A stretch of DNA of 64,000 nucleotides from a virus. Lineage: Duplodnaviria > Caudoviricetes. Position numbers and translations under genes: made by a program. Location: positions 1-64,000 of the IMG/VR virus record IMGVR_UViG_3300033463_000004; one strand, given 5' to 3'. The notes below the pieces were generated by a model. The model was not told the DNA's origin. It made no database searches and worked only from the letters and a program-made list of their open reading frames with translations. This document shows, piece by piece, positions 3,914-64,000 of this stretch; within the stretch, counting starts at the first letter, position 1; every line of letters begins with the position of its first letter.

Positions 3914-3936
3914 TATGGGGGCTTCATGCCCCCATA
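3914..3936 (+). terminator. Intrinsic terminator
   Basis: tatgggggc-ttcat-gcccccata followed by a T-rich tract. Confidence 0.8.
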
Positions 3937-3957
3937 GAAATTTTTTTATTTTTAAAC

Positions 3958-3969
3958 ACATATATACTT
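3958..3969 (+). promoter_or_regulatory. Early-type phage promoter motif (A[CG]ATATATnnTT), representative copy
   Basis: Recurs at operon starts: 10968, 12571, 16427, 24862, 26898, 36701, 45323, 53665, 55738, 61307 (+) and ~21870, 24827 (-); resembles phiKZ/AR9 early TATATT-type motifs. Confidence 0.65.
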
Positions 3970-4181: not shown

Positions 4182-5849
4182 ATGCTTGATCCTTCGTTGA
4201 TCATTACGGGGATTGCAGGGATCTGTGTTGCCATCAGTACTATCATTGATAGATTATCTGGTAATACAAATATGGGTTACTATTATACATACCCTTATAC
4301 GTATCCCACATATCAGTATTATCCCCAACAGCAAATGATACAACAACCAATGCAGCAATGCACATATGACTTTTCACGTCGTGCAATTGGCATGCCTGTT
4401 GCTCAGATGTATCAGCCGCAGATGATGCAGCCGATAATGATTCCAATGCAACAACCGGTTCAGTATCAATCAACTTATCCGTGGGCGAGTAATAATCAGG
4501 TTATGAATTACCCGCCGCAATATGTACAAAATTACCCTAATTATCCAATGCAACAGCAAATGGGCGGTTGCTATGTATATCCGAAAGTGTATGATTATGA
4601 TTTCGACAAAAGAAATCGAATGATCACACAGCAGCAACAAATGAATACGATGATGATGGGTAATGGATATAATGGGATGACTGCTGACGCAATGTATGAG
4701 AATGCTATGCGTGAGAACGTGAAACGTGCTTGGCAGAATTGGGATACGAGAAGATATTCCATGCCAATCAATCCTCCTGTTATGCCACAACAAATGATGA
4801 ATGTTCCACAGCCTCAAATGCAACAGCCGATGATGAATCAACCAATGATGAATCAGCCGATGCAACAGCCCCCTGCATGGGCACATAATATGGCTGTAAA
4901 CACAAATCATTATCCTGATATGAGCAGGCGTGATATGGGCCAGCCTGATCAGTATCCTTGGTCGTCTAATAATATGAATAATTATCAGACAAGCGGTTGG
5001 AAACCGTATGACCAATTGAGAGAATGGCAGGCTAAAGAGATGAGAAATGCGCTGACTGATAATGGTGCATTCTATCATACCAATCCGAATGGTGGATTTA
5101 ACCCGTACATGGTTCATCAATCACAAACGCCGTGCACAGATCCAAACTTTCCGGCACTGACAGCTTTAAGTAATACGGGAACTCCGCCAGAACTGAGATT
5201 TGCAAACCCACCAACTGAGTCTGCTTTGGTGGAACATGCAAGACGGCATACAGATCCGTTAGGGCGTTTTTTTAAGGAAGCTCCGGAATCTTTTAACAGT
5301 GGCGAATCAACGAAAACAAATGACGTGATAATCGATGATACAGACTATAGTCATGTTACATTCGATATGCTTCTTCGCAATCAGGCATTGACACATCCGA
5401 AATTGTCTAAAGAGGAATTTGAACGGGTGAAAAAGGAAGTTGAAAATCCTCGTCCATTTGCACCTGGTGAAGCACCTACAATTCACATAGGTGGTCCTCA
5501 GCCTGTTATACCGTTGACACCTGAAGAAGAAAGAGATAAGTATGAGCGAGAATATAAACGGCCACAGATTACGGAGTGGGTTGTTCATCCGGAAAATGAT
5601 CCGGATCCAGAAGTTAGAAAAGACTGGTATAGAAGACATGACAAGTATATCATGAGTTTAGCAGAAACTTCTGCCGAACCTTTAGACGTAAGCGGAGTTT
5701 GGTCAGATGATGACCCAACTGATAATGTATCGACACCAATCGAAACAGACAATTCAATTCAAAACAATTCAGTTCAGACAGAAACAACAGAAGAAGCAGT
5801 TGAATATACACGTGAAACGTGTCCGTATAAAATAACTGCAGATCCATAA
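4182..5849 (+). CDS. Gln/Pro/Met/Tyr-rich low-complexity protein with N-terminal hydrophobic segment
   Basis: N-terminal LIITGIAGICVAISTII; about 250 aa of Q/P/M/Y/N; repeated SRR/TRR and YPW motifs; acidic C-terminus. Confidence 0.8.
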   Translation: MLDPSLIITGIAGICVAISTIIDRLSGNTNMGYYYTYPYTYPTYQYYPQQQMIQQPMQQCTYDFSRRAIGMPVAQMYQPQMMQPIMIPMQQPVQYQSTYPWASNNQVMNYPPQYVQNYPNYPMQQQMGGCYVYPKVYDYDFDKRNRMITQQQQMNTMMMGNGYNGMTADAMYENAMRENVKRAWQNWDTRRYSMPINPPVMPQQMMNVPQPQMQQPMMNQPMMNQPMQQPPAWAHNMAVNTNHYPDMSRRDMGQPDQYPWSSNNMNNYQTSGWKPYDQLREWQAKEMRNALTDNGAFYHTNPNGGFNPYMVHQSQTPCTDPNFPALTALSNTGTPPELRFANPPTESALVEHARRHTDPLGRFFKEAPESFNSGESTKTNDVIIDDTDYSHVTFDMLLRNQALTHPKLSKEEFERVKKEVENPRPFAPGEAPTIHIGGPQPVIPLTPEEERDKYEREYKRPQITEWVVHPENDPDPEVRKDWYRRHDKYIMSLAETSAEPLDVSGVWSDDDPTDNVSTPIETDNSIQNNSVQTETTEEAVEYTRETCPYKITADP

Positions 5850-5937
5850 ACAATATAAAGAGTGACACAATCATTTACATCAATTTGAGTAGAGAGTCAG
5901 GCTCTATTCAAAAATACAGCAAAAGGAGGTTAGATCC

Positions 5938-6321
5938 ATGTCAAATCCTACTGTATCAGCAGTATTCGATGGAGTGAATTCTGTTTGTAATCAAGCAAAT
6001 TCGATCATCGATACAGGTCGAGCATTTGCAAATACTGCAATGTCTGCATTTGATTCTTTGTCAAATATCTCCAGAAGAGATTTCAATTATCAGATGCGAC
6101 CAATGACATATCAGCCGACGACATATCCGTGGGCATCACAGCAATATGGTTCGCCATATGGTCAGCAGCAAGGCATTACTGGTTATCCGGGTATCTCAAA
6201 TCCGAATTATGGAAGACCTGGATATTTCGGTAGCGGTTTCATCAATACCTCAGCATTCTCCCAACCGCAATCGCAATGGAATATTCCGTCATGGGTTGAA
6301 CAGTCTATTTGGGGGTCATAA
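5938..6321 (+). CDS. Small Gln/Tyr/Gly/Pro-rich protein (SRR/YPWA motif)
   Basis: AAGGAGG SD; NISRRDFNY...TYPWASQ. Confidence 0.8.
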   Translation: MSNPTVSAVFDGVNSVCNQANSIIDTGRAFANTAMSAFDSLSNISRRDFNYQMRPMTYQPTTYPWASQQYGSPYGQQQGITGYPGISNPNYGRPGYFGSGFINTSAFSQPQSQWNIPSWVEQSIWGS

Positions 6322-6324
6322 GAA

Positions 6325-6696
6325 ATGATATTCGATCAATTCTGTAAACAAATTGCTTCGAATGAATTGTTAACCGATCCGATCGTTTGTTCAGAAGATG
6401 ATGCCGATGATATTCTCAAGGAGCGCGCACAAGCTCTTTGTGGTATTATGCGTTTGAAAATGAATAAACTTGATCGGATCGAGATTCCATTCATTGAAGA
6501 AAAGCTCAAAGATCTGAATCGAGTTGAACAATTGCTCTCCGAATATAATCAAGGAGAAATTCCGGACTATCTGTTGATGACATTTTCAGAGAAACTCTAT
6601 GGTATTCCATTTAATGAGTTAAATATTGACCAACAATCTGTAATTAAAACGCTGAGTATATACATCTGCGTATCTATTCAGAGTTCTAATAAATAA
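6325..6696 (+). CDS. Hypothetical protein
   Basis: 123-aa ORF in operon. Confidence 0.7.
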   Translation: MIFDQFCKQIASNELLTDPIVCSEDDADDILKERAQALCGIMRLKMNKLDRIEIPFIEEKLKDLNRVEQLLSEYNQGEIPDYLLMTFSEKLYGIPFNELNIDQQSVIKTLSIYICVSIQSSNK

Positions 6697-6716
6697 TTTC
6701 AAGGAGGAATAATCCT

Positions 6717-7379
6717 ATGGCAACAAAGGGTAATCTCAAGACACTTCCCGTTGATCATCACATCGTAAGCTCTTCCGATATCGTCGAGTATCTTCAGAAT
6801 CAGTTGGGCTTCCGGTTTGACTGTGATTTCCAGCTTTGGGATAACAGAGCTGATTGGGAAAAGCCGATGACAACAAACAAATGTTATGTTGTCATGCGTG
6901 TCATCTTCCGTCCGGAAGACATCCGTATTGTTGAACCGATTCAGACTTATGTTGACAAAGTCATGGAAGAGAATGCGTCTGGCATTCGTTTCAAGGATGA
7001 TGTTGTCGAAGTTCTGAAACAGTTCATGTTCCCGAGTAACATTGCACTGGTTCGTCAGCAACCGGACACTCTGCAGCGTCTTGCTGAACAGGGTATCTAT
7101 GGTGATCGTCTGGAAAGACTGATTCGTCGTCCTGATATCTTCTATGATCAGGTAAACAAGCGTTTCGGTGTTTACCTGCGTCCGGAGCTGATCATCAAGG
7201 ATATGTGTAAAGATGCTGACACGGACAAGATTGATGGTGTGATGGCATTCGGTTACGTGTCTGATGCAGGAAATAATGCTGCTGCAATCACATGGGGTGT
7301 TAACGTATATCACAACATCCGTTCTGTAAGCTCCAGCGGTGTTTCCATCGACGCTGTGTTCAACAGCATTCGTGCGTAA
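6717..7379 (+). CDS. Hypothetical protein, probably highly expressed
   Basis: AAGGAGG SD; CGT/CTG/TTC/AAC/ATC codon bias like the sheath and tube genes; own terminator. Confidence 0.8.
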   Translation: MATKGNLKTLPVDHHIVSSSDIVEYLQNQLGFRFDCDFQLWDNRADWEKPMTTNKCYVVMRVIFRPEDIRIVEPIQTYVDKVMEENASGIRFKDDVVEVLKQFMFPSNIALVRQQPDTLQRLAEQGIYGDRLERLIRRPDIFYDQVNKRFGVYLRPELIIKDMCKDADTDKIDGVMAFGYVSDAGNNAAAITWGVNVYHNIRSVSSSGVSIDAVFNSIRA

Positions 7380-7410
7380 TTTGTTTGCGCAAACAAATTC
7401 ATATTATGGA

Positions 7411-7438
7411 AAAGCGGTGGGATTCGTCCCACCGCTTT
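7411..7438 (+). terminator. Intrinsic terminator
   Basis: aaagcggtggga-ttcg-tcccaccgcttt. Confidence 0.75.
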
Positions 7439-7465
7439 CATCCATATCATATGGAGGTGTTTTTT

Positions 7466-8527
7466 TTGTCTACTTTAGAAATTTCACAAATGATTGATTT
7501 AATGGAAGATCATTTTGCACCGTTATGGAATCGCAATCATGTATTAACAGTTGGCGGTGTCATTGGAACTTCAATATTCAAATATGCAATGGATGCATGT
7601 ATGAAATATTATGAATTAAATCAAATCCTTGTAATAGATGGATGTCAAGATTATATTGGTTTATTAAAGAAACCAATGCACAATTATATGTATTATATGG
7701 ATTTATTTGTATCCATTCGAATCCCATCTATTGAAGAACAAATGAATCCATATCATAAATTTCCGATGGAATTAAAATCCGGATACCGAATGGTGTTAGT
7801 TAATCAAAAACTTACAATGTATGAAGCAATCATTATTCAAAATGCGCATTTGATTCCGGAGAATTGTTTAAAATCAATTCATGAAAACTTTAATGGACAA
7901 ATCCTTCAAATTGTTGATCCTTTAGATTTCAATGGGATTGATTTTCATACAATACCAACATTATATGATTCTTTATCAAAACAATCTCCTATGACAGCAT
8001 TAGCACGATCAATGTTTGGGATTGATTCAAGATGTATTGATAGAAAAATCCATACTGAATTTAAGAAAATGAAAATGTCAAAACGTAGTATTGGTAAAAT
8101 CGATACAAATCAATATGTCACCAATTCTCAAGAGGTTTTGAATATAATTCAACGTAAACAAATACAATCTCAATTTCGAAAAAATCAAAAATTCATTGTT
8201 GGTTCTGAAGAGATTCGTTTATATAATGATCAGAATAGAGAACCAGTTACAGTTGGACCTGGTACGATGTTAACATTATCATCTGTAACAAAACCTTTGA
8301 TGCAGCTTCGTGTTCATTCATCACTGAAACATATTTATTCGACATTGTCATATAAATATACCGAGAAATCATTATATGTAAAACCTGCAAATATAATAAC
8401 CATTGATGATGCCGTATACCATAGATTTAATTCGTTGGTGGTCGTATTATCTGACGAACCTATGACGAATAGACTGTGGTATTCTCTCATGAAAATCGCG
8501 AATACTATAACAGTTGTAGACTTCTGA
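7466..8527 (+). CDS. Degenerate Dda/RecD-like SF1B helicase homologue (probably inactive)
   Basis: GGAGG SD then TTG; motif order preserved but altered: VLTVGGVIGTS, IIIQNAHLI, QIVDPLDF, ANIITIDDA..RFNSLVVV, LWYSLMKIA. Confidence 0.5.
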   Translation: MSTLEISQMIDLMEDHFAPLWNRNHVLTVGGVIGTSIFKYAMDACMKYYELNQILVIDGCQDYIGLLKKPMHNYMYYMDLFVSIRIPSIEEQMNPYHKFPMELKSGYRMVLVNQKLTMYEAIIIQNAHLIPENCLKSIHENFNGQILQIVDPLDFNGIDFHTIPTLYDSLSKQSPMTALARSMFGIDSRCIDRKIHTEFKKMKMSKRSIGKIDTNQYVTNSQEVLNIIQRKQIQSQFRKNQKFIVGSEEIRLYNDQNREPVTVGPGTMLTLSSVTKPLMQLRVHSSLKHIYSTLSYKYTEKSLYVKPANIITIDDAVYHRFNSLVVVLSDEPMTNRLWYSLMKIANTITVVDF

Positions 8528-8542
8528 TAGGGAGGTAGACAT

Positions 8543-9229
8543 ATGTTATTTTTTTCTAAACGAAAAGAAGCAAAGAGGAGAAAAGCACAACTTGAATCTG
8601 ATGTGAACGAATTCAAAACTATTGTCAAAAACATTATGACAGGAATATATAAATTTGATGAATGTATGCAAAGGATTATTGATGTCGGTGATGTATCTTT
8701 ACATACGGCTATGTTCATCACACGTTCAGCAGATGATTTATTTGTATTATTTCAATTATACCGTAACAATCGATTTTTTCATATTTCAAATAATAAAATA
8801 ATAAGTGAAAAGCTTGACACATTGAAAGAGATTGGAACTCGTATAAAAAATAATGCAGAAGATTTACAAATTATGATCGAAAATCATAAAATGACAATCA
8901 AAGGTTTGAAGGCGTGTGACAATGCAGATGTTGAAATCAGTGGTGATACAGTTGCAGAAGTACATGGAAAAATTCTTGAATTGACTTTAATGATTAATAA
9001 GAAAATGTTTGATATACGTACAGATCATGTCGTATTTCGATCTACATTGATTTCATTGAGAGGTATTGTATCACGTGATTATATACCAATCATAAGCGGT
9101 GTTGATATTCTATTATTATATGAAGATTATGAATCCGAAGTTAATCAGTATTTGACTAACGAGATTCTTTTTGATAAAGTAGAGATCGAAAAGATCTCTT
9201 CAAATAAAGGAGGAACTAAAGATGAATGA
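8543..9229 (+). CDS. Hypothetical helical protein
   Basis: GGAGG SD; 228 aa; overlaps the chaperonin start. Confidence 0.75.
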   Translation: MLFFSKRKEAKRRKAQLESDVNEFKTIVKNIMTGIYKFDECMQRIIDVGDVSLHTAMFITRSADDLFVLFQLYRNNRFFHISNNKIISEKLDTLKEIGTRIKNNAEDLQIMIENHKMTIKGLKACDNADVEISGDTVAEVHGKILELTLMINKKMFDIRTDHVVFRSTLISLRGIVSRDYIPIISGVDILLLYEDYESEVNQYLTNEILFDKVEIEKISSNKGGTKDE

Positions 9230-10952
9230 CGCAATTGCAGAAGAACTTGGTTATTCTAAACATTATGATTTTACCCAGTATGCACATGATAACAATGTGA
9301 ATGTTATCCCAGAAGAAGATTTCAAACGTCTTGTTCAAGAAACATTCAAATGCATCGCGGATAATCTGCGGAAAACTTATGGTCCATATGCATCTGCAGT
9401 TTTAATTTCTGATCAAAATGAAACATATGCAACGAAAGATGGATACAATGTTTTCAATGCATTGGGATTCTCACATACATACAAAAGAATGGTTTATCTT
9501 GCAATCAAGAAAATCATTGATCGTGTAAATCGAAATGTTGGTGATGGTACAACATCTTGCATTCTGATTGCTGAAAAACTGTTTAATGAGTTGAATCAGA
9601 TTCTGAAAACAGTTGATGATAAACGAAACATCATGGATGTTCTCGGTGATATCGAAGCATACCTGCTTGATCAACAGATATTACAGAATGACAACCAAGA
9701 ATGTGAATGTGTCAAACCGTTGACGATTGATTCATTATATGGGTTAATTGATATGGCTGGCAATTATGATTCAAAATTGACAGACATCATAATTGAAGCA
9801 TTGGAACCTGTATATGATGAATTCGAACGAGTCACATTAATTCGAAATGTTATTGTTGATTCTAAGCTCGAAAGCGACAGTGATACGATTTCATATGAAA
9901 TCGATTATCTTCCGGGTGATTTCCGCACAAGAGTCAATATGGATCAAACATTTGCATTACTTTTTGAAGAACCTCGCAAGATAAGAATTGCATTGTATGA
10001 TCATGTGTTTGGACCCGATGATTGGAATTTCTTCATGAGAAATTATGACAAACAGACTGAGACATTAATCATTGCAAGAGATTTCAACCGTTCATTCCTT
10101 GATAATGAATTTGTTCGTTATCTCAGACAACTGGAAATTGCAAAAACACCGGTTCCGATTATTCTTGCACAAATTAAATGTGAATATGTCCGTGATGAAA
10201 TCAAGGATCTTGGTGCTGTTATTGGCATGGATCCAATTGGAATGCATGCACAAGCGGTTGATCATGAGAATCTTCCTGTTGTACCAGTACAGGTGTACAA
10301 AGGAAATTGCATGTGCTTCCATGGTGTTTCTGCACCTGAAGATTATATCAAGACAGTTGAGATGGAAGCAAACGCTGATCTGTCTGGAAGTCTGACAAAA
10401 GGTCAATGGTACAAAGACAGACTGAAAGCACTAAAGAATGTTGCAAAAGATACACTTGTGACAGTAAAAGCAACATCATCACTTGAACAGAAAATGGTTG
10501 CTGATAAAATTGATGATTGTATTTCAATCGTTAATTCTGCAATGACATATGGTGTTATACCGAATCTTTTCGTGTATGGATATTATCGTTTGGAGGAATA
10601 TACAGATAATGATATTCCTTCATTAAATGCGGATGCTGCAAATGCAATTATGAAATCAATCAAAGGACTGTTCATGGATATATGGGCATCCAAGCATGGT
10701 GACTCATTTGAAGAAAAACGTGATAACATCATGGATCAATTATATCAAAATGAATCAAGTTATGATTCATTTGATATTATAAAAGAAGCATTGGTTGATG
10801 CAGAGAATCTTCCAACATCAGCACAATATGATTTGGAAGTTATTGCAGCAGCGATCTCTATTGTCAAATATTTATTGACAGGACGTGCGTTGATTTTTGA
10901 TGCATTCATCATGAAACCAGTTGATGATACTGGTTCATATTCCCGTAATTAA
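9222..10952 (+). CDS. groEL: GroEL-like (Cpn60) phage chaperonin
   Basis: KTYGP, TKDGYNV and VGDGTTS nucleotide-binding motifs; 576 aa. Confidence 0.9.
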   Translation: MNDAIAEELGYSKHYDFTQYAHDNNVNVIPEEDFKRLVQETFKCIADNLRKTYGPYASAVLISDQNETYATKDGYNVFNALGFSHTYKRMVYLAIKKIIDRVNRNVGDGTTSCILIAEKLFNELNQILKTVDDKRNIMDVLGDIEAYLLDQQILQNDNQECECVKPLTIDSLYGLIDMAGNYDSKLTDIIIEALEPVYDEFERVTLIRNVIVDSKLESDSDTISYEIDYLPGDFRTRVNMDQTFALLFEEPRKIRIALYDHVFGPDDWNFFMRNYDKQTETLIIARDFNRSFLDNEFVRYLRQLEIAKTPVPIILAQIKCEYVRDEIKDLGAVIGMDPIGMHAQAVDHENLPVVPVQVYKGNCMCFHGVSAPEDYIKTVEMEANADLSGSLTKGQWYKDRLKALKNVAKDTLVTVKATSSLEQKMVADKIDDCISIVNSAMTYGVIPNLFVYGYYRLEEYTDNDIPSLNADAANAIMKSIKGLFMDIWASKHGDSFEEKRDNIMDQLYQNESSYDSFDIIKEALVDAENLPTSAQYDLEVIAAAISIVKYLLTGRALIFDAFIMKPVDDTGSYSRN

Positions 10953-11068
10953 TTTTTTATTTCAGAGAGATATATCATTAAGCAGATTAGAGGGGCATTT
11001 TGCCCCTCTATCTACTTTTTGAAATCTCTGAACCAAAATATACAAATTTGATTACAGGCGGTGATGTT

Positions 11069-12559
11069 GTGAAGACATTAAAACCTTCGATGTGGAAAAA
11101 TATTGCATCGATATTATTATCAAATCATGATGAATGGAAATCATCTCGCAATATGGTTTTATTTGCACGCGCATTGACAACATATCCTAGTAGATCCGAA
11201 TATTATCTGGCATGCCAACGTATCATTCATTATATGGAACAAAACATTTTATCTGTATCAATGATTGTTGAAACAATGCATGCTGAAGGTGAATCTGAAG
11301 ATGTGTTATCCGCGATTGAAGTATTGCAAGATAATCCAACAATCAAAACACTTGCAGAAGTACAGAGACTTTGTGCTGTATTAGCAGAATATGTCAAATA
11401 TGCAAATGTTTTAAAAGTGAAAGAATCATTCTTAAAAGCGATTGATTTGATTGATGATGATGAATCAAATATAAAGAACACAGTTGACAATCTTTATCAA
11501 ATATCAAATAAGATTGTGACCGCATATAATGCAGCGGCTTTTACACAAGCAACTTCTTCATTTGATTCTGATAATCCAGAAGAAATGAAGAATGGAATTG
11601 CAGAAGCAAAAGATGCACGTTCTTCTGATAAAACAATTATCACTGGAATTCGTGGTTTAAATAATCTATTATCACCAGGATATTTGTCTGGTTGTTTATA
11701 TATTTATGCAGCATTACCAGGCTGCTATAAAAGTGGTATTTTGTTACAATCACATATTGACACCTGTAAATTTAATGAACATATAAAACACACAACAAAT
11801 GGAAAGACTCCTATATCTATTTATATTTCCATGGAAAATACAATGGCACAAACCATTCGACGTGTTTGGTCATTACTGTTTCCATCTGCAGATTTATCAA
11901 TGTTTACTGTTGATGAAGCCATGGAAATGATTAATAACGAATTAACACAAAAGGGATTTCGTTCTGTTATTCTATATTATGGATATCGAGAGAAATCTAC
12001 AGCTGATCTTTATGATATCATTCGTGGATATAATGATGACACCCATCAAGTTGTCGCATTATATCTTGACTATATTAAACGAATTCGTTCTGCACGTACA
12101 GATGCTGCTGCAACAAATTCTGAGAAATCTGAACTTCATGCAATCATGAATGAATTGAAAACGTTGGCATCACAATTTGACATACCGGTTGTATCTGGAC
12201 ATCAGTTGAATAGAGCTGCAGCGGCCGCGGTTGATGCCGTTGTTCAGTCTGGTGGTTATGCAAAAACTGCAGAAGTTCTTGGAAGATCTCATATCGGAAC
12301 TGCGTGGGAAATAATGGAAGTTGCAGACTGGCTTGCTGAAATGAATATTGAGAATGATGGTGAGAACAAGATGCTTATGATTAAAGCTGTAAAACAAAGA
12401 GATCTTGATAACAAGTCTGATGTACAAATTACAGCAATTAGACATCCATTTCTATCGCCAGAATCGTTTGCACTTCGCCAGGATATCATGGAGAATTGTT
12501 CTATATCAACTCCGATATATACTGGCAAACATCAATTGAATTATATGGCGAATATTTAA
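11069..12559 (+). CDS. DnaB-like replicative helicase
   Basis: Walker A AALPGCYKSG, YISMEN, LYLDYIKRI, VVSGHQLNR; GTG start after AGGCGGTG. Confidence 0.85.
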   Translation: MKTLKPSMWKNIASILLSNHDEWKSSRNMVLFARALTTYPSRSEYYLACQRIIHYMEQNILSVSMIVETMHAEGESEDVLSAIEVLQDNPTIKTLAEVQRLCAVLAEYVKYANVLKVKESFLKAIDLIDDDESNIKNTVDNLYQISNKIVTAYNAAAFTQATSSFDSDNPEEMKNGIAEAKDARSSDKTIITGIRGLNNLLSPGYLSGCLYIYAALPGCYKSGILLQSHIDTCKFNEHIKHTTNGKTPISIYISMENTMAQTIRRVWSLLFPSADLSMFTVDEAMEMINNELTQKGFRSVILYYGYREKSTADLYDIIRGYNDDTHQVVALYLDYIKRIRSARTDAAATNSEKSELHAIMNELKTLASQFDIPVVSGHQLNRAAAAAVDAVVQSGGYAKTAEVLGRSHIGTAWEIMEVADWLAEMNIENDGENKMLMIKAVKQRDLDNKSDVQITAIRHPFLSPESFALRQDIMENCSISTPIYTGKHQLNYMANI

Positions 12560-12646
12560 TTATTTTTCGCACATATATAATTTATTCGATTACGGGTGAC
12601 ACAATGTTACTCCGTGATTGAAAATATTCGAGGAGGTTTACACATC

Positions 12647-13279
12647 ATGATTGAGAATTATCAATCACACATTCTCAAACCAGCAGAAGTGGTCGACTAT
12701 TCCGCTGAGTTGATCCATGGTTTGAGACCGGAAATCATTCAGATGGAACCGATGATCGGATTCAAAGTGATGGTAAGAGACATGAATGCATACACAACAC
12801 CTTCTCAGGCAGCGAGATTCCAATTCATTGAAATGAATCTCGGATTCCTGAAAGATAGTGGTTGTATCATTCGTGAAACTCAAACCACTGAATCACCTGA
12901 TGGATTTTGGGTCATCACGTTCCCGGTTCCGCAATCACAGCTTTCGGCACAAATGTCAAAATTGACGATTGTGCTGGACTTCCTGACATCTAATTTCGGT
13001 ATCATTCCTGTTGATGTTGTTGAGATTAATGTATCAGGAAGATGCCCTGTTGGTGAAAGTGAATGGCGTCTTGCAAACGTTAATATCCCGAGTGCAATTC
13101 GTCAGTATTCAGTTGAACCGACAAATACCCCGTATAAACTTGGACATATCATCAGAATTAATGATGAATTTGCAATGCTTCGCACAATGTGGGATTGGCG
13201 CAATAGCGGTATGCCGTCAAGTTCTCATTTAAGCGATATGCTTGTAATTCCTCAGTTGATCAGTGGTATGTTCCGGTAA
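12647..13279 (+). CDS. Hypothetical protein
   Basis: GAGGAGG SD; first gene after an early-type promoter and 5' hairpin. Confidence 0.75.
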   Translation: MIENYQSHILKPAEVVDYSAELIHGLRPEIIQMEPMIGFKVMVRDMNAYTTPSQAARFQFIEMNLGFLKDSGCIIRETQTTESPDGFWVITFPVPQSQLSAQMSKLTIVLDFLTSNFGIIPVDVVEINVSGRCPVGESEWRLANVNIPSAIRQYSVEPTNTPYKLGHIIRINDEFAMLRTMWDWRNSGMPSSSHLSDMLVIPQLISGMFR

Positions 13280-13303
13280 TATTCCAAAGGAGGAAAACTA
13301 CTC

Positions 13304-13984
13304 ATGAGTATCTTCAACACCAATCCCGATCCCGATTATCCGGTTCTGAATGGTCCGGGATTCATTCAGGCCACCTATCAGCAGTACAACAACCCTTATA
13401 TGCAGGCTGCAGGTGCACAGCAGTACTACTATAATGGTCAGTATCTCCAGCCCATGTATCAGCCGATGCATCAGCCTGGTTTCCCCGCTGATTCCAGAAG
13501 ATATGATGCACCGACGACTCCGATGCCGACACAGCAGCCGCAACAGACATTCGGTTTCAATCAGTTTGCTGAAAGCAGACGGAACCAGGTAAATCCGCCT
13601 GCAACAAGTCCGTGGGCTGTTCAGACAATTCAGCAACCGCAACCTGTTATGCCGGTAATGCAGATGCAACAATTTGCAGCACCACAAACACAGGTGACAA
13701 CTGTGACATATCCGTCTGCATATCTCACAACAAACAATCCATATCCCGCATTGACAACTTGTCATCCGTCAATCGACAAGACAAATGCATGGGGTGATCC
13801 GAAGGTGTACAACCCAATGCCTGCTCCGATGGTGAATTGGGGCAATGTTGGTATGCAGCCTGTACAGGTGGCACCTCAGCAGTGTGGATATGCACTTCAG
13901 ACAATGACATATCCTCAGCCGGTTATGACACAGCCGATTCAGCAGAACTGGGAAGAAATTGCGAAGCAGAACTTCCCGAAGTAA
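13304..13984 (+). CDS. Gln/Pro-rich low-complexity protein (two SRR motifs, SPWA)
   Basis: AAAGGAGG SD; ADSRRYD and AESRRNQ..SPWAVQ; high-expression codon bias. Confidence 0.85.
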   Translation: MSIFNTNPDPDYPVLNGPGFIQATYQQYNNPYMQAAGAQQYYYNGQYLQPMYQPMHQPGFPADSRRYDAPTTPMPTQQPQQTFGFNQFAESRRNQVNPPATSPWAVQTIQQPQPVMPVMQMQQFAAPQTQVTTVTYPSAYLTTNNPYPALTTCHPSIDKTNAWGDPKVYNPMPAPMVNWGNVGMQPVQVAPQQCGYALQTMTYPQPVMTQPIQQNWEEIAKQNFPK

Positions 13985-13997
13985 GGAGTGAAAGCCG

Positions 13998-14843
13998 ATG
14001 ATCTTCACGTATAGATCAAGATTGGCACAAATTCCTATTGAAGTACGAGAGGCGTTAGGTGAGGTGTCATATCAAATTGGTATGACACCTTCAGCCAGAA
14101 GAGAACGGTGCATAAAAGCTTTAAAAGAACATAATATCCCATTCAAAGATATTGGTACTGGAACAAATCGATTCATCATCCGATATGACGGATATGCGGT
14201 TAAAATCGCATTGGATGCTGAAGGGATTGCAGACAATAAACAAGAATGGGTTATGTCATCAAGGTTATCGCCTGATGTTGCTAAAGCTCATGAAATAAGT
14301 AAAGGAGGCCACCTGTTGGTGGCCTCATATGCACCAGCCTTTTCAAATTATCAGGAATTTTTGTCATATAGGCCACAAATAACGGCGATACTCAAACGAT
14401 GGTCAAAACAATATTTGTTGGGTGATGTTGGTATCACATCTGTAAATTATGCAAACTGGGGACTTCTTGAAAGTAAACCTGTTTGTATAGATTACGCGTA
14501 TATATTTCCTGTTGCAATGAGAACATTCACATGTGTTTGTGGTTGTGAAGAAATGAATTTTGCAGATGAACAATTCACAATATACAAATGTGGTAATCCT
14601 GATTGTAATATGACGTATACCGACAGAGAGCTTCGTTCGAGAATCTCGCAAGAAGAACGTTTACGTTTATTCAAAAATGTTTCTGATAAAGCCATTGAAA
14701 TGTTTGCACCAGAACAGGATGTCGAAATCGAAGATGGTTTATTGAAACGAGATATTGATCCGGATTTACCTGATCCTCTGGAAGTAACTGAAGGTGTGCA
14801 GTTATATGAAAGCTATAAACCACTCACAAAAATTATCAGATGA
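13998..14843 (+). CDS. Ser/Thr protein-kinase-like protein with C-terminal Cys (Zn) cluster
   Basis: G-loop IGTGTNR, YAVK lysine, alphaC Glu (NKQEW), catalytic LGDV....NWG, IDY (DFG equivalent); CVCGC..CGNPDC. Confidence 0.75.
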   Translation: MIFTYRSRLAQIPIEVREALGEVSYQIGMTPSARRERCIKALKEHNIPFKDIGTGTNRFIIRYDGYAVKIALDAEGIADNKQEWVMSSRLSPDVAKAHEISKGGHLLVASYAPAFSNYQEFLSYRPQITAILKRWSKQYLLGDVGITSVNYANWGLLESKPVCIDYAYIFPVAMRTFTCVCGCEEMNFADEQFTIYKCGNPDCNMTYTDRELRSRISQEERLRLFKNVSDKAIEMFAPEQDVEIEDGLLKRDIDPDLPDPLEVTEGVQLYESYKPLTKIIR

Positions 14844-20446: not shown

Positions 20447-21175
20447 TTATGCCGGCGTAACGACATCGGCAGGAACCTTGTGGTTCTTACTGCCGATGTT
20501 ACCACCGTAGGACACTGTAACAACGGCGACTTTGCCGTCGTTCTCGTATCCTCTGAAAATCCCCTTAAATCGTGTCAGGGTTTCTCCTTCAATTGTCTTG
20601 GCGTCAGACGCCAAAACTACTTTCTGACCAGGCTTCAACTGAAGCCCGGTATTTCCGACATCTTCTGCCGGGGGAATGATCTCAACAACCGGCTGCTGTG
20701 CCTGCTGCTGCGCCTGCTGCTGTGCATATGCATCCATGCGATCAGACAAAATCTTGAGAGCACGAGGATCACCCATGCTCGCAGCAAACTCCAACTCCGT
20801 TTCGCTGGGGTTATCCCAGTTGATAACGGATGCCGGCTGCTGAGCAGGCTGCTGCACCTGCTGCTGCCGTTGTGCCATTACAGCAGCAGCTTGTTCATAG
20901 AGACGGTTTGCCATCTCCATGGCTTGCTGCTGTTGTGCCTGCTGCTCAGCTGCCATCTGAATAGCTTGCTGTTGCTGTGCCTGCTGTTCAGCAGCCATCT
21001 GAATTGCCTGCTGCTGATACAGCAACGCCTGCTGGCGCTGCGCTTCTGCGATGGCTTTTTTATTTTTATTATTAACAATCTTATTGGTGATAGCGTTGTC
21101 CAATTTGGACAACACGCAATAAGATACGGTAAATGCCGCAACGCCTGCGGCTCCGGCGATCAGTTTGACTGCCAT
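20447..21175 (-). CDS. Gln-rich protein: N-terminal hydrophobic segment, tandem Q/A repeats, C-terminal KOW/SH3-like domain
   Basis: GGAGG SD; (QQQAIQMAAEQQAQ) x~2.5; LKPGQKVV..FKGIF......VAVVTVSYGG. Confidence 0.75.
   Translation of the reverse strand: MAVKLIAGAAGVAAFTVSYCVLSKLDNAITNKIVNNKNKKAIAEAQRQQALLYQQQAIQMAAEQQAQQQQAIQMAAEQQAQQQQAMEMANRLYEQAAAVMAQRQQQVQQPAQQPASVINWDNPSETELEFAASMGDPRALKILSDRMDAYAQQQAQQQAQQPVVEIIPPAEDVGNTGLQLKPGQKVVLASDAKTIEGETLTRFKGIFRGYENDGKVAVVTVSYGGNIGSKNHKVPADVVTPA
20915..21015 (-). repeat. 42-bp coding tandem repeat
   Basis: About 2.5 copies encoding QQQAIQMAAEQQAQ. Confidence 0.75.
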
Positions 21176-21356: not shown

Positions 21357-21734
21357 TTAGAACATGCCAGATCCGGTAGCAGCAAATGCCGCTACAGTGG
21401 TATCGCCGTATCCGGTGTTATCCGGAACCGGTACTGTCGGAATAACCGGCTGTTCGCTGGTGCAACCACAGTACCGGTTGTCAATCCATCTGTAAACCAA
21501 GATACCGGCCGCGGCAGAAAGTGCGATAATAAACACAGTTTTACCTATTTTAATTGCTTTCTGCTTGACGATATCCTTGCGTTCGGCTTCAATCTGTGCC
21601 TGCATCTCAGGTGTGATGAAGCCGGGAACAGGAGCAGCCATCATCGGCTGCGGAATTGCAGCTGCCTGCGGAATTGCGGTTGCCTGCGGAATCTGCTGCG
21701 GAATGGCAGTTGCCTGCGGAATCTGATTCATCAT
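21357..21734 (-). CDS. Small membrane protein with IPQ(ATA) repeats
   Basis: AAAGGAG SD; five IPQ repeats; TM-like segment VFIIALSAAAGILVY. Confidence 0.75.
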   Translation of the reverse strand: MMNQIPQATAIPQQIPQATAIPQAAAIPQPMMAAPVPGFITPEMQAQIEAERKDIVKQKAIKIGKTVFIIALSAAAGILVYRWIDNRYCGCTSEQPVIPTVPVPDNTGYGDTTVAAFAATGSGMF

Positions 21735-63970: not shown

Positions 63971-64000
63971 AAGTGGGGCATATAGCCCCACTTTATTTTT
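63971..64000 (+). terminator. Intrinsic terminator
   Basis: aagtggggc-atata-gccccactt followed by a T-rich tract. Confidence 0.8.

Follow-up and report, generated by a model that had tools for sequence, protein, structure and literature searches.

The window analyzed here is a stretch of 64,000 nucleotides that runs from base 1 to base 64000 of a viral record (IMGVR_UViG_3300033463_000004) of 262,694 bp, which is 98% complete. It carries three open reading frames (ORFs) for low-complexity proteins: ORF 4182 (protein A), ORF 5938 (protein B), and ORF 13304 (protein C). The module formed by A, B, and C is real, conserved, and undescribed. It is accompanied by a gene for a predicted protein-kinase-like enzyme. 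The genes and their motifs are as follows.

4182 to 5849, plus strand: protein A, 555 aa, with an anchor, a Q/P/M/Y/N region (residues 28-330), and a charged C-terminal part
Within A, plus strand: SRR at residues 65 and 248, TRR at 189, YPW at 99 and 258, PALT at 323
5938 to 6321, plus strand: protein B, 127 aa, with a strong Shine-Dalgarno sequence, SRR at 45, YPW at 63, G[FI]xNxxYG at 85, and evenly spaced aromatics
13304 to 13984, plus strand: protein C, 226 aa, of disordered composition, with a strong Shine-Dalgarno sequence
Within C, plus strand: [ND]PDYP at residues 9-13, SRR at 64 and 91, PW at 103, Px[VI]NW near 179, and a C-terminal WxxIAxxN[WF]
13998 to 14843, plus strand: protein-kinase-like enzyme, 281 aa, with invariant K69, E83, D143, N153, D165, and four Cys, and a low-confidence C-terminal tail
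14757 to 14774, plus strand: [ND]PDxPD in the kinase tail (aa 254-259), common with the N terminus of C

Every motif that the original prediction had claimed for the three ORFs was found in the ORF concerned. In content of Q, P, N, M, Y, and G over a 60-aa window, A ranks first, C second, and B joint third among the 258 ORFs of the genome. The three proteins have a low fraction of charged residues (0.07 to 0.11), 12 to 19% aromatics, and 18 to 25% Q+N; the charge-poor setting claimed for the motifs holds for residues 28-330 of A but not for residues 331-555, where the charged fraction is 0.32. Aromatics are spaced more evenly than in shuffles in B (P = 0.0004) and C (P = 0.024). Together, the proteins contain 5/16 of the SRR and 6/30 of the [ST]RR sequences of the proteome, all three of its YPW[AS]S words, and both of its [FY]PALT words. 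Compared with within-protein shuffles, the [ST]RR counts give P = 0.0002 for A, 0.03 for B, and <0.00005 for C. None of the three matched a family in Pfam or PHROGs, and a nucleic-acid-binding domain was looked for in them and not found. Perhaps SRR belongs to a Tat signal peptide? The Tat consensus is S-R-R-x-F-L-K near the N terminus, followed by a hydrophobic region. The SRR motifs of A, B, and C are internal and are followed by polar Q/P sequence, and the second residue after RR is mostly Asp. We rejected this possibility.

Judged from its sequence, the uncultured phage is an AR9-like jumbo phage with a genome of 263 kb. The closest isolates by DnaB are the Bacillus phages BpSp, AR9, and PBS1 and staphylococcal jumbo phages (25-29% identity), and the genome encodes split multisubunit RNA polymerases (RNAPs). 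Strong AGGAGG ribosome sites suggest a Bacillota host. We take the source metagenomes of the relatives to be mostly rumen. The sole RNA run with the region came from bovine gut and held 13 short contigs, which do not demonstrate transcription. Related loci were gathered by searches with the kinase and with the 12647 protein, and they have a common gene order: A, B, 6325, 6717, 7385, 8543, chaperonin, DnaB, 12647, C, kinase. B and C are both present in 40 loci, or 31 after dereplication at 80% kinase identity.

Among its 83 homologs, C consists of fixed motifs strung along drifting linkers. The pattern [DE]x?[SA]RR occurs in 82/83 (shuffle mean, 0.09), with two copies in 76, PD[YAWF]P in 80/83 (shuffle mean, 2.3), and [NS]PW in 79/83, well above shuffles. 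These homologs were collected with a profile built on the same motifs; a set defined by synteny agrees, with [SAP]RR in 28 of 31. PALT, present in 1/83 C homologs, was rejected as a shared motif. The window's C has four Arg, all within its two SRR motifs, and 340 of the 475 Arg of the C family lie in RR pairs. In B, SRR is found in 24/31 homologs. The B orthologs keep an N-terminal segment, likely an amphipathic helix, as well as the G[FI]xNxxYG motif and a YPW block that reads YGYGY in most of them. Whole-length paralogy of B and C was rejected: profile comparison shows only the SRR block in common.

Protein A is the fastest evolving of the three, ranging from 109 to 575 aa among loci while keeping its low-complexity character. 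The N-terminal hydrophobic segment noted in the original prediction was confirmed (residues 6-22; mean hydropathy, 2.5) and is conserved in relatives. It is present in 24 of 37 proteins in the A slot, and 11 of the 13 others start at the edge of a locus and may be cut. Basic residues often follow the segment, which suggests a tail in the cytoplasm. In L096 and L105, the slot is occupied by another type of small membrane protein, resembling the product of window ORF 21357. Q/P-rich proteins with one hydrophobic segment are also encoded in a variable cluster of the window, at 20447-21175 (minus strand) and 21357-21734 (plus strand); 20447 contains a Px[VI]NW-like word, as does protein C.

Are these motifs maintained as peptides? 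The motif Ser uses both TCN and AGY codons, and the motif Arg both CGN and AGR, even within one genome. Hence, selection acts on the peptide, and we rejected the motifs as DNA or RNA elements because their codons vary. The motifs also appear to change together. Raw counts of words shared among A, B, and C are two- to fourfold higher within a genome than between genomes. SRR is present in both B and C in 31 loci and in neither in 7, with 1 discordant (L009). Joint loss or alteration of SRR in B and C occurred three times on the kinase-domain tree: in L007, whose sister L011 keeps both; in L045/L047; and in the L006/L010/L058 clade, which has ARR or PRR. A different motif is common to A and C of L007 and absent elsewhere in its genome.

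The [ND]PDxP motif links C to the kinase. Only three to four [ND]PDxP motifs occur in each of three whole genomes, two of them in C and the kinase. L078/L080 have PEYP in both C and the kinase tail, L095 has TSPDMP in both, and PDxP is gone from both in L084/L085/L108 and in L087/L100. Overall, PDxP is in both proteins in 36 loci, in neither in 11, in C only in 11, and in the kinase only in 1. The simplest reading of this pattern is that the C and kinase-tail peptides would use one putative binding site, carried either by the kinase or by a third protein. A predicted complex of kinase 1-246 with C 1-110 (score, 0.02; mark, 0.32) was used as evidence neither way. As for the enzyme itself, ORF 13998 has a protein-kinase-like fold, with matches to RIO2, JAK, and CDC7 (E about 1e-4, TM about 0.33), and its active site is intact; a small-molecule substrate is possible. 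It matched a PHROG of unknown function, and no isolated phage was matched by tblastn. The kinases of motif-bearing loci are only 43-55% identical.

Neighboring genes supply candidate partners, and upstream elements bear on expression.

3914 to 3936: terminator hairpin, just upstream of the ACAYATATA at 3956
3956 to 3964, plus strand: AT-rich ACAYATATA, candidate early (virion RNAP) promoter of the A operon, upstream of the A gene in 13 loci
6325 to 7379, plus strand: 6325 and 6717, two conserved proteins of unknown function, candidate motif readers
7385 to 12559, plus strand: intervening replication block of 7385, 8543, a GroEL-like chaperonin (9222), and a divergent DnaB helicase (11000)
12571 to 12579, plus strand: second copy of AT-rich ACAYATATA, about 80 nt before 12647, preceding the ortholog in 15/40 loci
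12647 to 13279, plus strand: conserved 210-aa protein, candidate reader, always immediately upstream of C

ACAYATATA has 23 copies in the genome, 11 of them in non-coding DNA, which makes up 12% of the sequence; the window's copies lie at 3956, 12571, 16427, and 24860. Because early promoters in such phages carry conserved AT-rich motifs of about ten bases (PMC7598289), the operons of A and of 12647 are both probably early. A scan for sigma-70 promoters stayed at chance level. In some relatives (L003:1136-2224; L040:2314-3420), a single ORF of about 360 aa joins 6325 and 6717, so their products probably work together. Motifs in 12647 recall an amidoligase (COOH-NH2 ligase) fold with an altered active site; no library match was obtained, and neither 6717 nor 12647 matched anything in family or structure searches. 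One column of 12647 changes in 3/4 PDxP-variant lineages, all on long branches, and serves as a lead only. ORF 7385-8527 has the look of a Dda/RecD-type helicase with a degenerate Walker A motif; a Dda-like assignment was not accepted, as the profile match to the AR9 Dda-like helicase reached only E = 0.09. Several relatives, L003 (5867-8533), L004, L005, L012, and L015, have a DnaB gene interrupted about 80 codons short of its end, and some carry an inserted ORF; this is probably an intron with a homing endonuclease.

How might these pieces fit together? We give about an even chance to a co-expressed, kinase-coupled, membrane-tethered motif scaffold, in which A, B, C, and the kinase would form one network of short linear motifs. 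Each motif class ([DE]SRR; YPW or YGYGY; [ND]PDxP) would bind a common partner. The hub would be C, in which about eight motifs are conserved, and a binding site shared by its N-terminal PDxP and the kinase tail would tie the kinase to C. B would be a small multivalent linker, and the network would be tethered by A to the membrane's inner face. More speculatively, replication proteins, among them the co-transcribed helicase and chaperonin, may be gathered by the network in a focus that is attached to the membrane, possibly liquid-like, and regulated by the kinase. The interpretation in the original prediction is partly supported: motif conservation, co-variation between the proteins, the conserved anchor of A, and the presence of tubulin without a detectable chimallin speak for its multivalent motif-based assembly.

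Several observations weigh against the scaffold. The prediction depended on motif conservation in orthologs, which was seen for B and C but not for PALT and only in part for A, where SRR is present in only 6/30 orthologs. In one clade, Ala or Pro replaces the Ser of SRR, and hence this Ser is not an obligatory phosphosite. The within-genome excess of shared words persists when composition is controlled (P = 0.009 for A-B, 0.012 for A-C, and 0.0007 for B-C), but these P values are optimistic because the genomes permuted are related. With only three to four independent joint changes, a sign test cannot reach significance; these few events suggest that the motifs change jointly. In 11/59 loci, the kinase is without canonical PDxP while C has the motif. 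Finally, co-variation among ten neighbors pointed to no reader, and for SRR it gave nothing.

The original prediction had likened the motifs to the Tyr/Arg stickers of FUS-family proteins, and this part was not supported. FUS carries [GS]Y[GS] repeats in its prion-like domain. Like FUS- and hnRNPA1-type domains, A, B, and C are low in charge and rich in Gln/Asn and aromatics, with even aromatic spacing in B and C and Gly-Tyr repeats in many orthologs. Unlike those domains, A and C are Pro-rich and Gly/Ser-poor (12-15% Pro, 4% Gly, 3% Ser), B alone being Gly/Ser-rich. Gly/Ser-rich [GS]Y[GS] spacers are lacking in the window's A, B, and C, the YGYGY runs being found in orthologs. FUS also has numerous Arg (RGG) scattered along it for pairing with Tyr, and these are likewise lacking: Arg are few and fixed in [DE]SRR, as with the four of C. 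The three proteins also differ in their ordered, conserved motifs, in the membrane anchor of A, and in that no RNA-binding domain was found. The SRR arginines are too few and too context-fixed for FUS-type stickers and look like docking motifs.

Might A, B, and C nevertheless phase-separate alone, through aromatic stickers, into a condensate or gel, which would surround the phage DNA as a substitute for a chimallin shell? We consider this unlikely, though their low charge, aromatic content, and even spacing in B and C are in its favor, as are the YGYGY runs, which recall the FUS repeats. Phage precedents exist. ChmC (phiKZ gp67, PhiPA3 gp61) forms condensates with RNA in vitro (10.1101/2023.09.22.559000). 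Like A, B, and C, it is encoded in a core non-virion block of jumbo phages and has a polar region that is disordered; it differs in being an RNA-binding tetramer of Whirly fold whose Asn/Gly tail is short, whereas low complexity extends through almost all of B and C and no family match to the Whirly domain with its tail was found. SPO1 Gp27, another phage-encoded condensate former from a Bacillota host, is described as one modular transcription factor, which brings host RNAP to high concentration, and its abstract mentions neither a three-protein motif network nor a linked kinase (PMC13401047). The Nucleocytoviricota viral-factory scaffolds (mimivirus OLS1, noumeavirus NMV_238, vaccinia H5, the last heavily phosphorylated) are likewise disordered, with composition conserved more than sequence; they differ from the nearly uncharged A, B, and C in showing charge segregation and about 15% Glu, so that this charge-patterned grammar of giant-virus scaffolds is absent here (PMC12415211). 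Arg scarcity and the failure to find a nucleic-acid-binding domain also count against a condensate, and conservation specific to position and context exceeds what generic stickers need.

The state of chimallin in the clade bears on the same question: tubulin and ThyX, together with the lack of a match to ChmA, PicA, or ChmC, count in favor of the condensate. The original prediction had named a PhuZ-like tubulin and no recognizable chimallin. The tubulin was borne out: window ORF 25699 matches PF00091, and a tubulin match is found in 4/4 clade genomes. So is ThyX (flavin-dependent thymidylate synthase; genome 212419-213432, outside the window), whose presence suggests thymine DNA. The AR9/PBS1-like multisubunit-RNAP phages (Takahashivirus) are the closest isolates by helicase and have the gp226-like subunit described below; AR9, with uracil DNA, differs in having no match to protein C, ThyX, or tubulin. 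Jumbo phages that encode RNAPs have been described with thymine DNA and a nucleus or with uracil DNA and no nucleus (PMC7598289), and for AR9/PBS1-like phages no chimallin is reported (10.1101/2023.02.24.529968). A hidden Markov model (HMM) search for ChmA, as the original prediction had proposed, matched nothing in the genome, which does not show absence. PicA and ChmC had no HMM match in the clade, and the phiKZ control was positive in the ChmC family search. A profile-profile search for chimallin among 83 proteins gave no match and also missed its positive control. We tried and rejected as chimallin the gene at genome positions 190173-191810 (L019:7174-8811), which sits just before non-virion RNAP (nvRNAP) beta'-N, the slot of chimallin in phiKZ: it encodes a highly conserved 545-aa gp226-like promoter-specificity subunit that folds like AR9 gp226 and phiKZ gp68. 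Sequence methods had missed this gp68 homolog, later found by folding, and a diverged chimallin is therefore possible, which tells against the condensate as its replacement.

The motifs might instead be ligands or decoys for a host protein (a protease, a sensor, or a division or secretion factor), with A, B, C, and the kinase serving takeover or counter-defense and joint motif change following a change of host. The early-type upstream motif would suit such a role, as would the hypervariability of A, the other small membrane protein in its slot in L096 and L105, and the lack of any phage reader that co-varies with SRR. We nonetheless find it doubtful, because in every relative the genes hold fixed positions within the core replication block, which sets them apart from the variable cluster at 20.4-21.7 kb, and because the motifs persist across kinases as divergent as those above.

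Words shared among the proteins have identical codons in 152/247 cases against 129 expected (z = 3.1), and in L005 a word of eight residues has identical codons throughout (8/8); from this modest excess and this case, it is probable that some motifs in A are seeded by DNA copying. That motif sharing as a whole is a by-product of copying between low-complexity genes whose proteins are separate and have no common ligand is most improbable, given that SRR copies in one genome use different codon families, that B and C have only the SRR block in common, that the motifs sit at homologous places across deep divergence, and that copying, even if it seeds A motifs, does not account for why B, C, and the kinase retain theirs.

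In the literature searched, we found no comparable module in a phage. Three conserved, largely disordered proteins whose motifs co-evolve, together with a linked kinase, are reminiscent of eukaryotic scaffold signaling. The motifs offer well-defined targets for mutation, and the small size of B, C, and the kinase allows host-free tests. A clade with ThyX and tubulin and without a recognizable chimallin raises the question of how its DNA is organized and protected. It seems improbable that, in this clade, three disordered proteins form a condensate, tethered to the membrane and regulated by the kinase, in place of the chimallin nucleus; if they do, this would be a third way, besides the protein shell and uracil DNA, to organize and shield a jumbo-phage genome.

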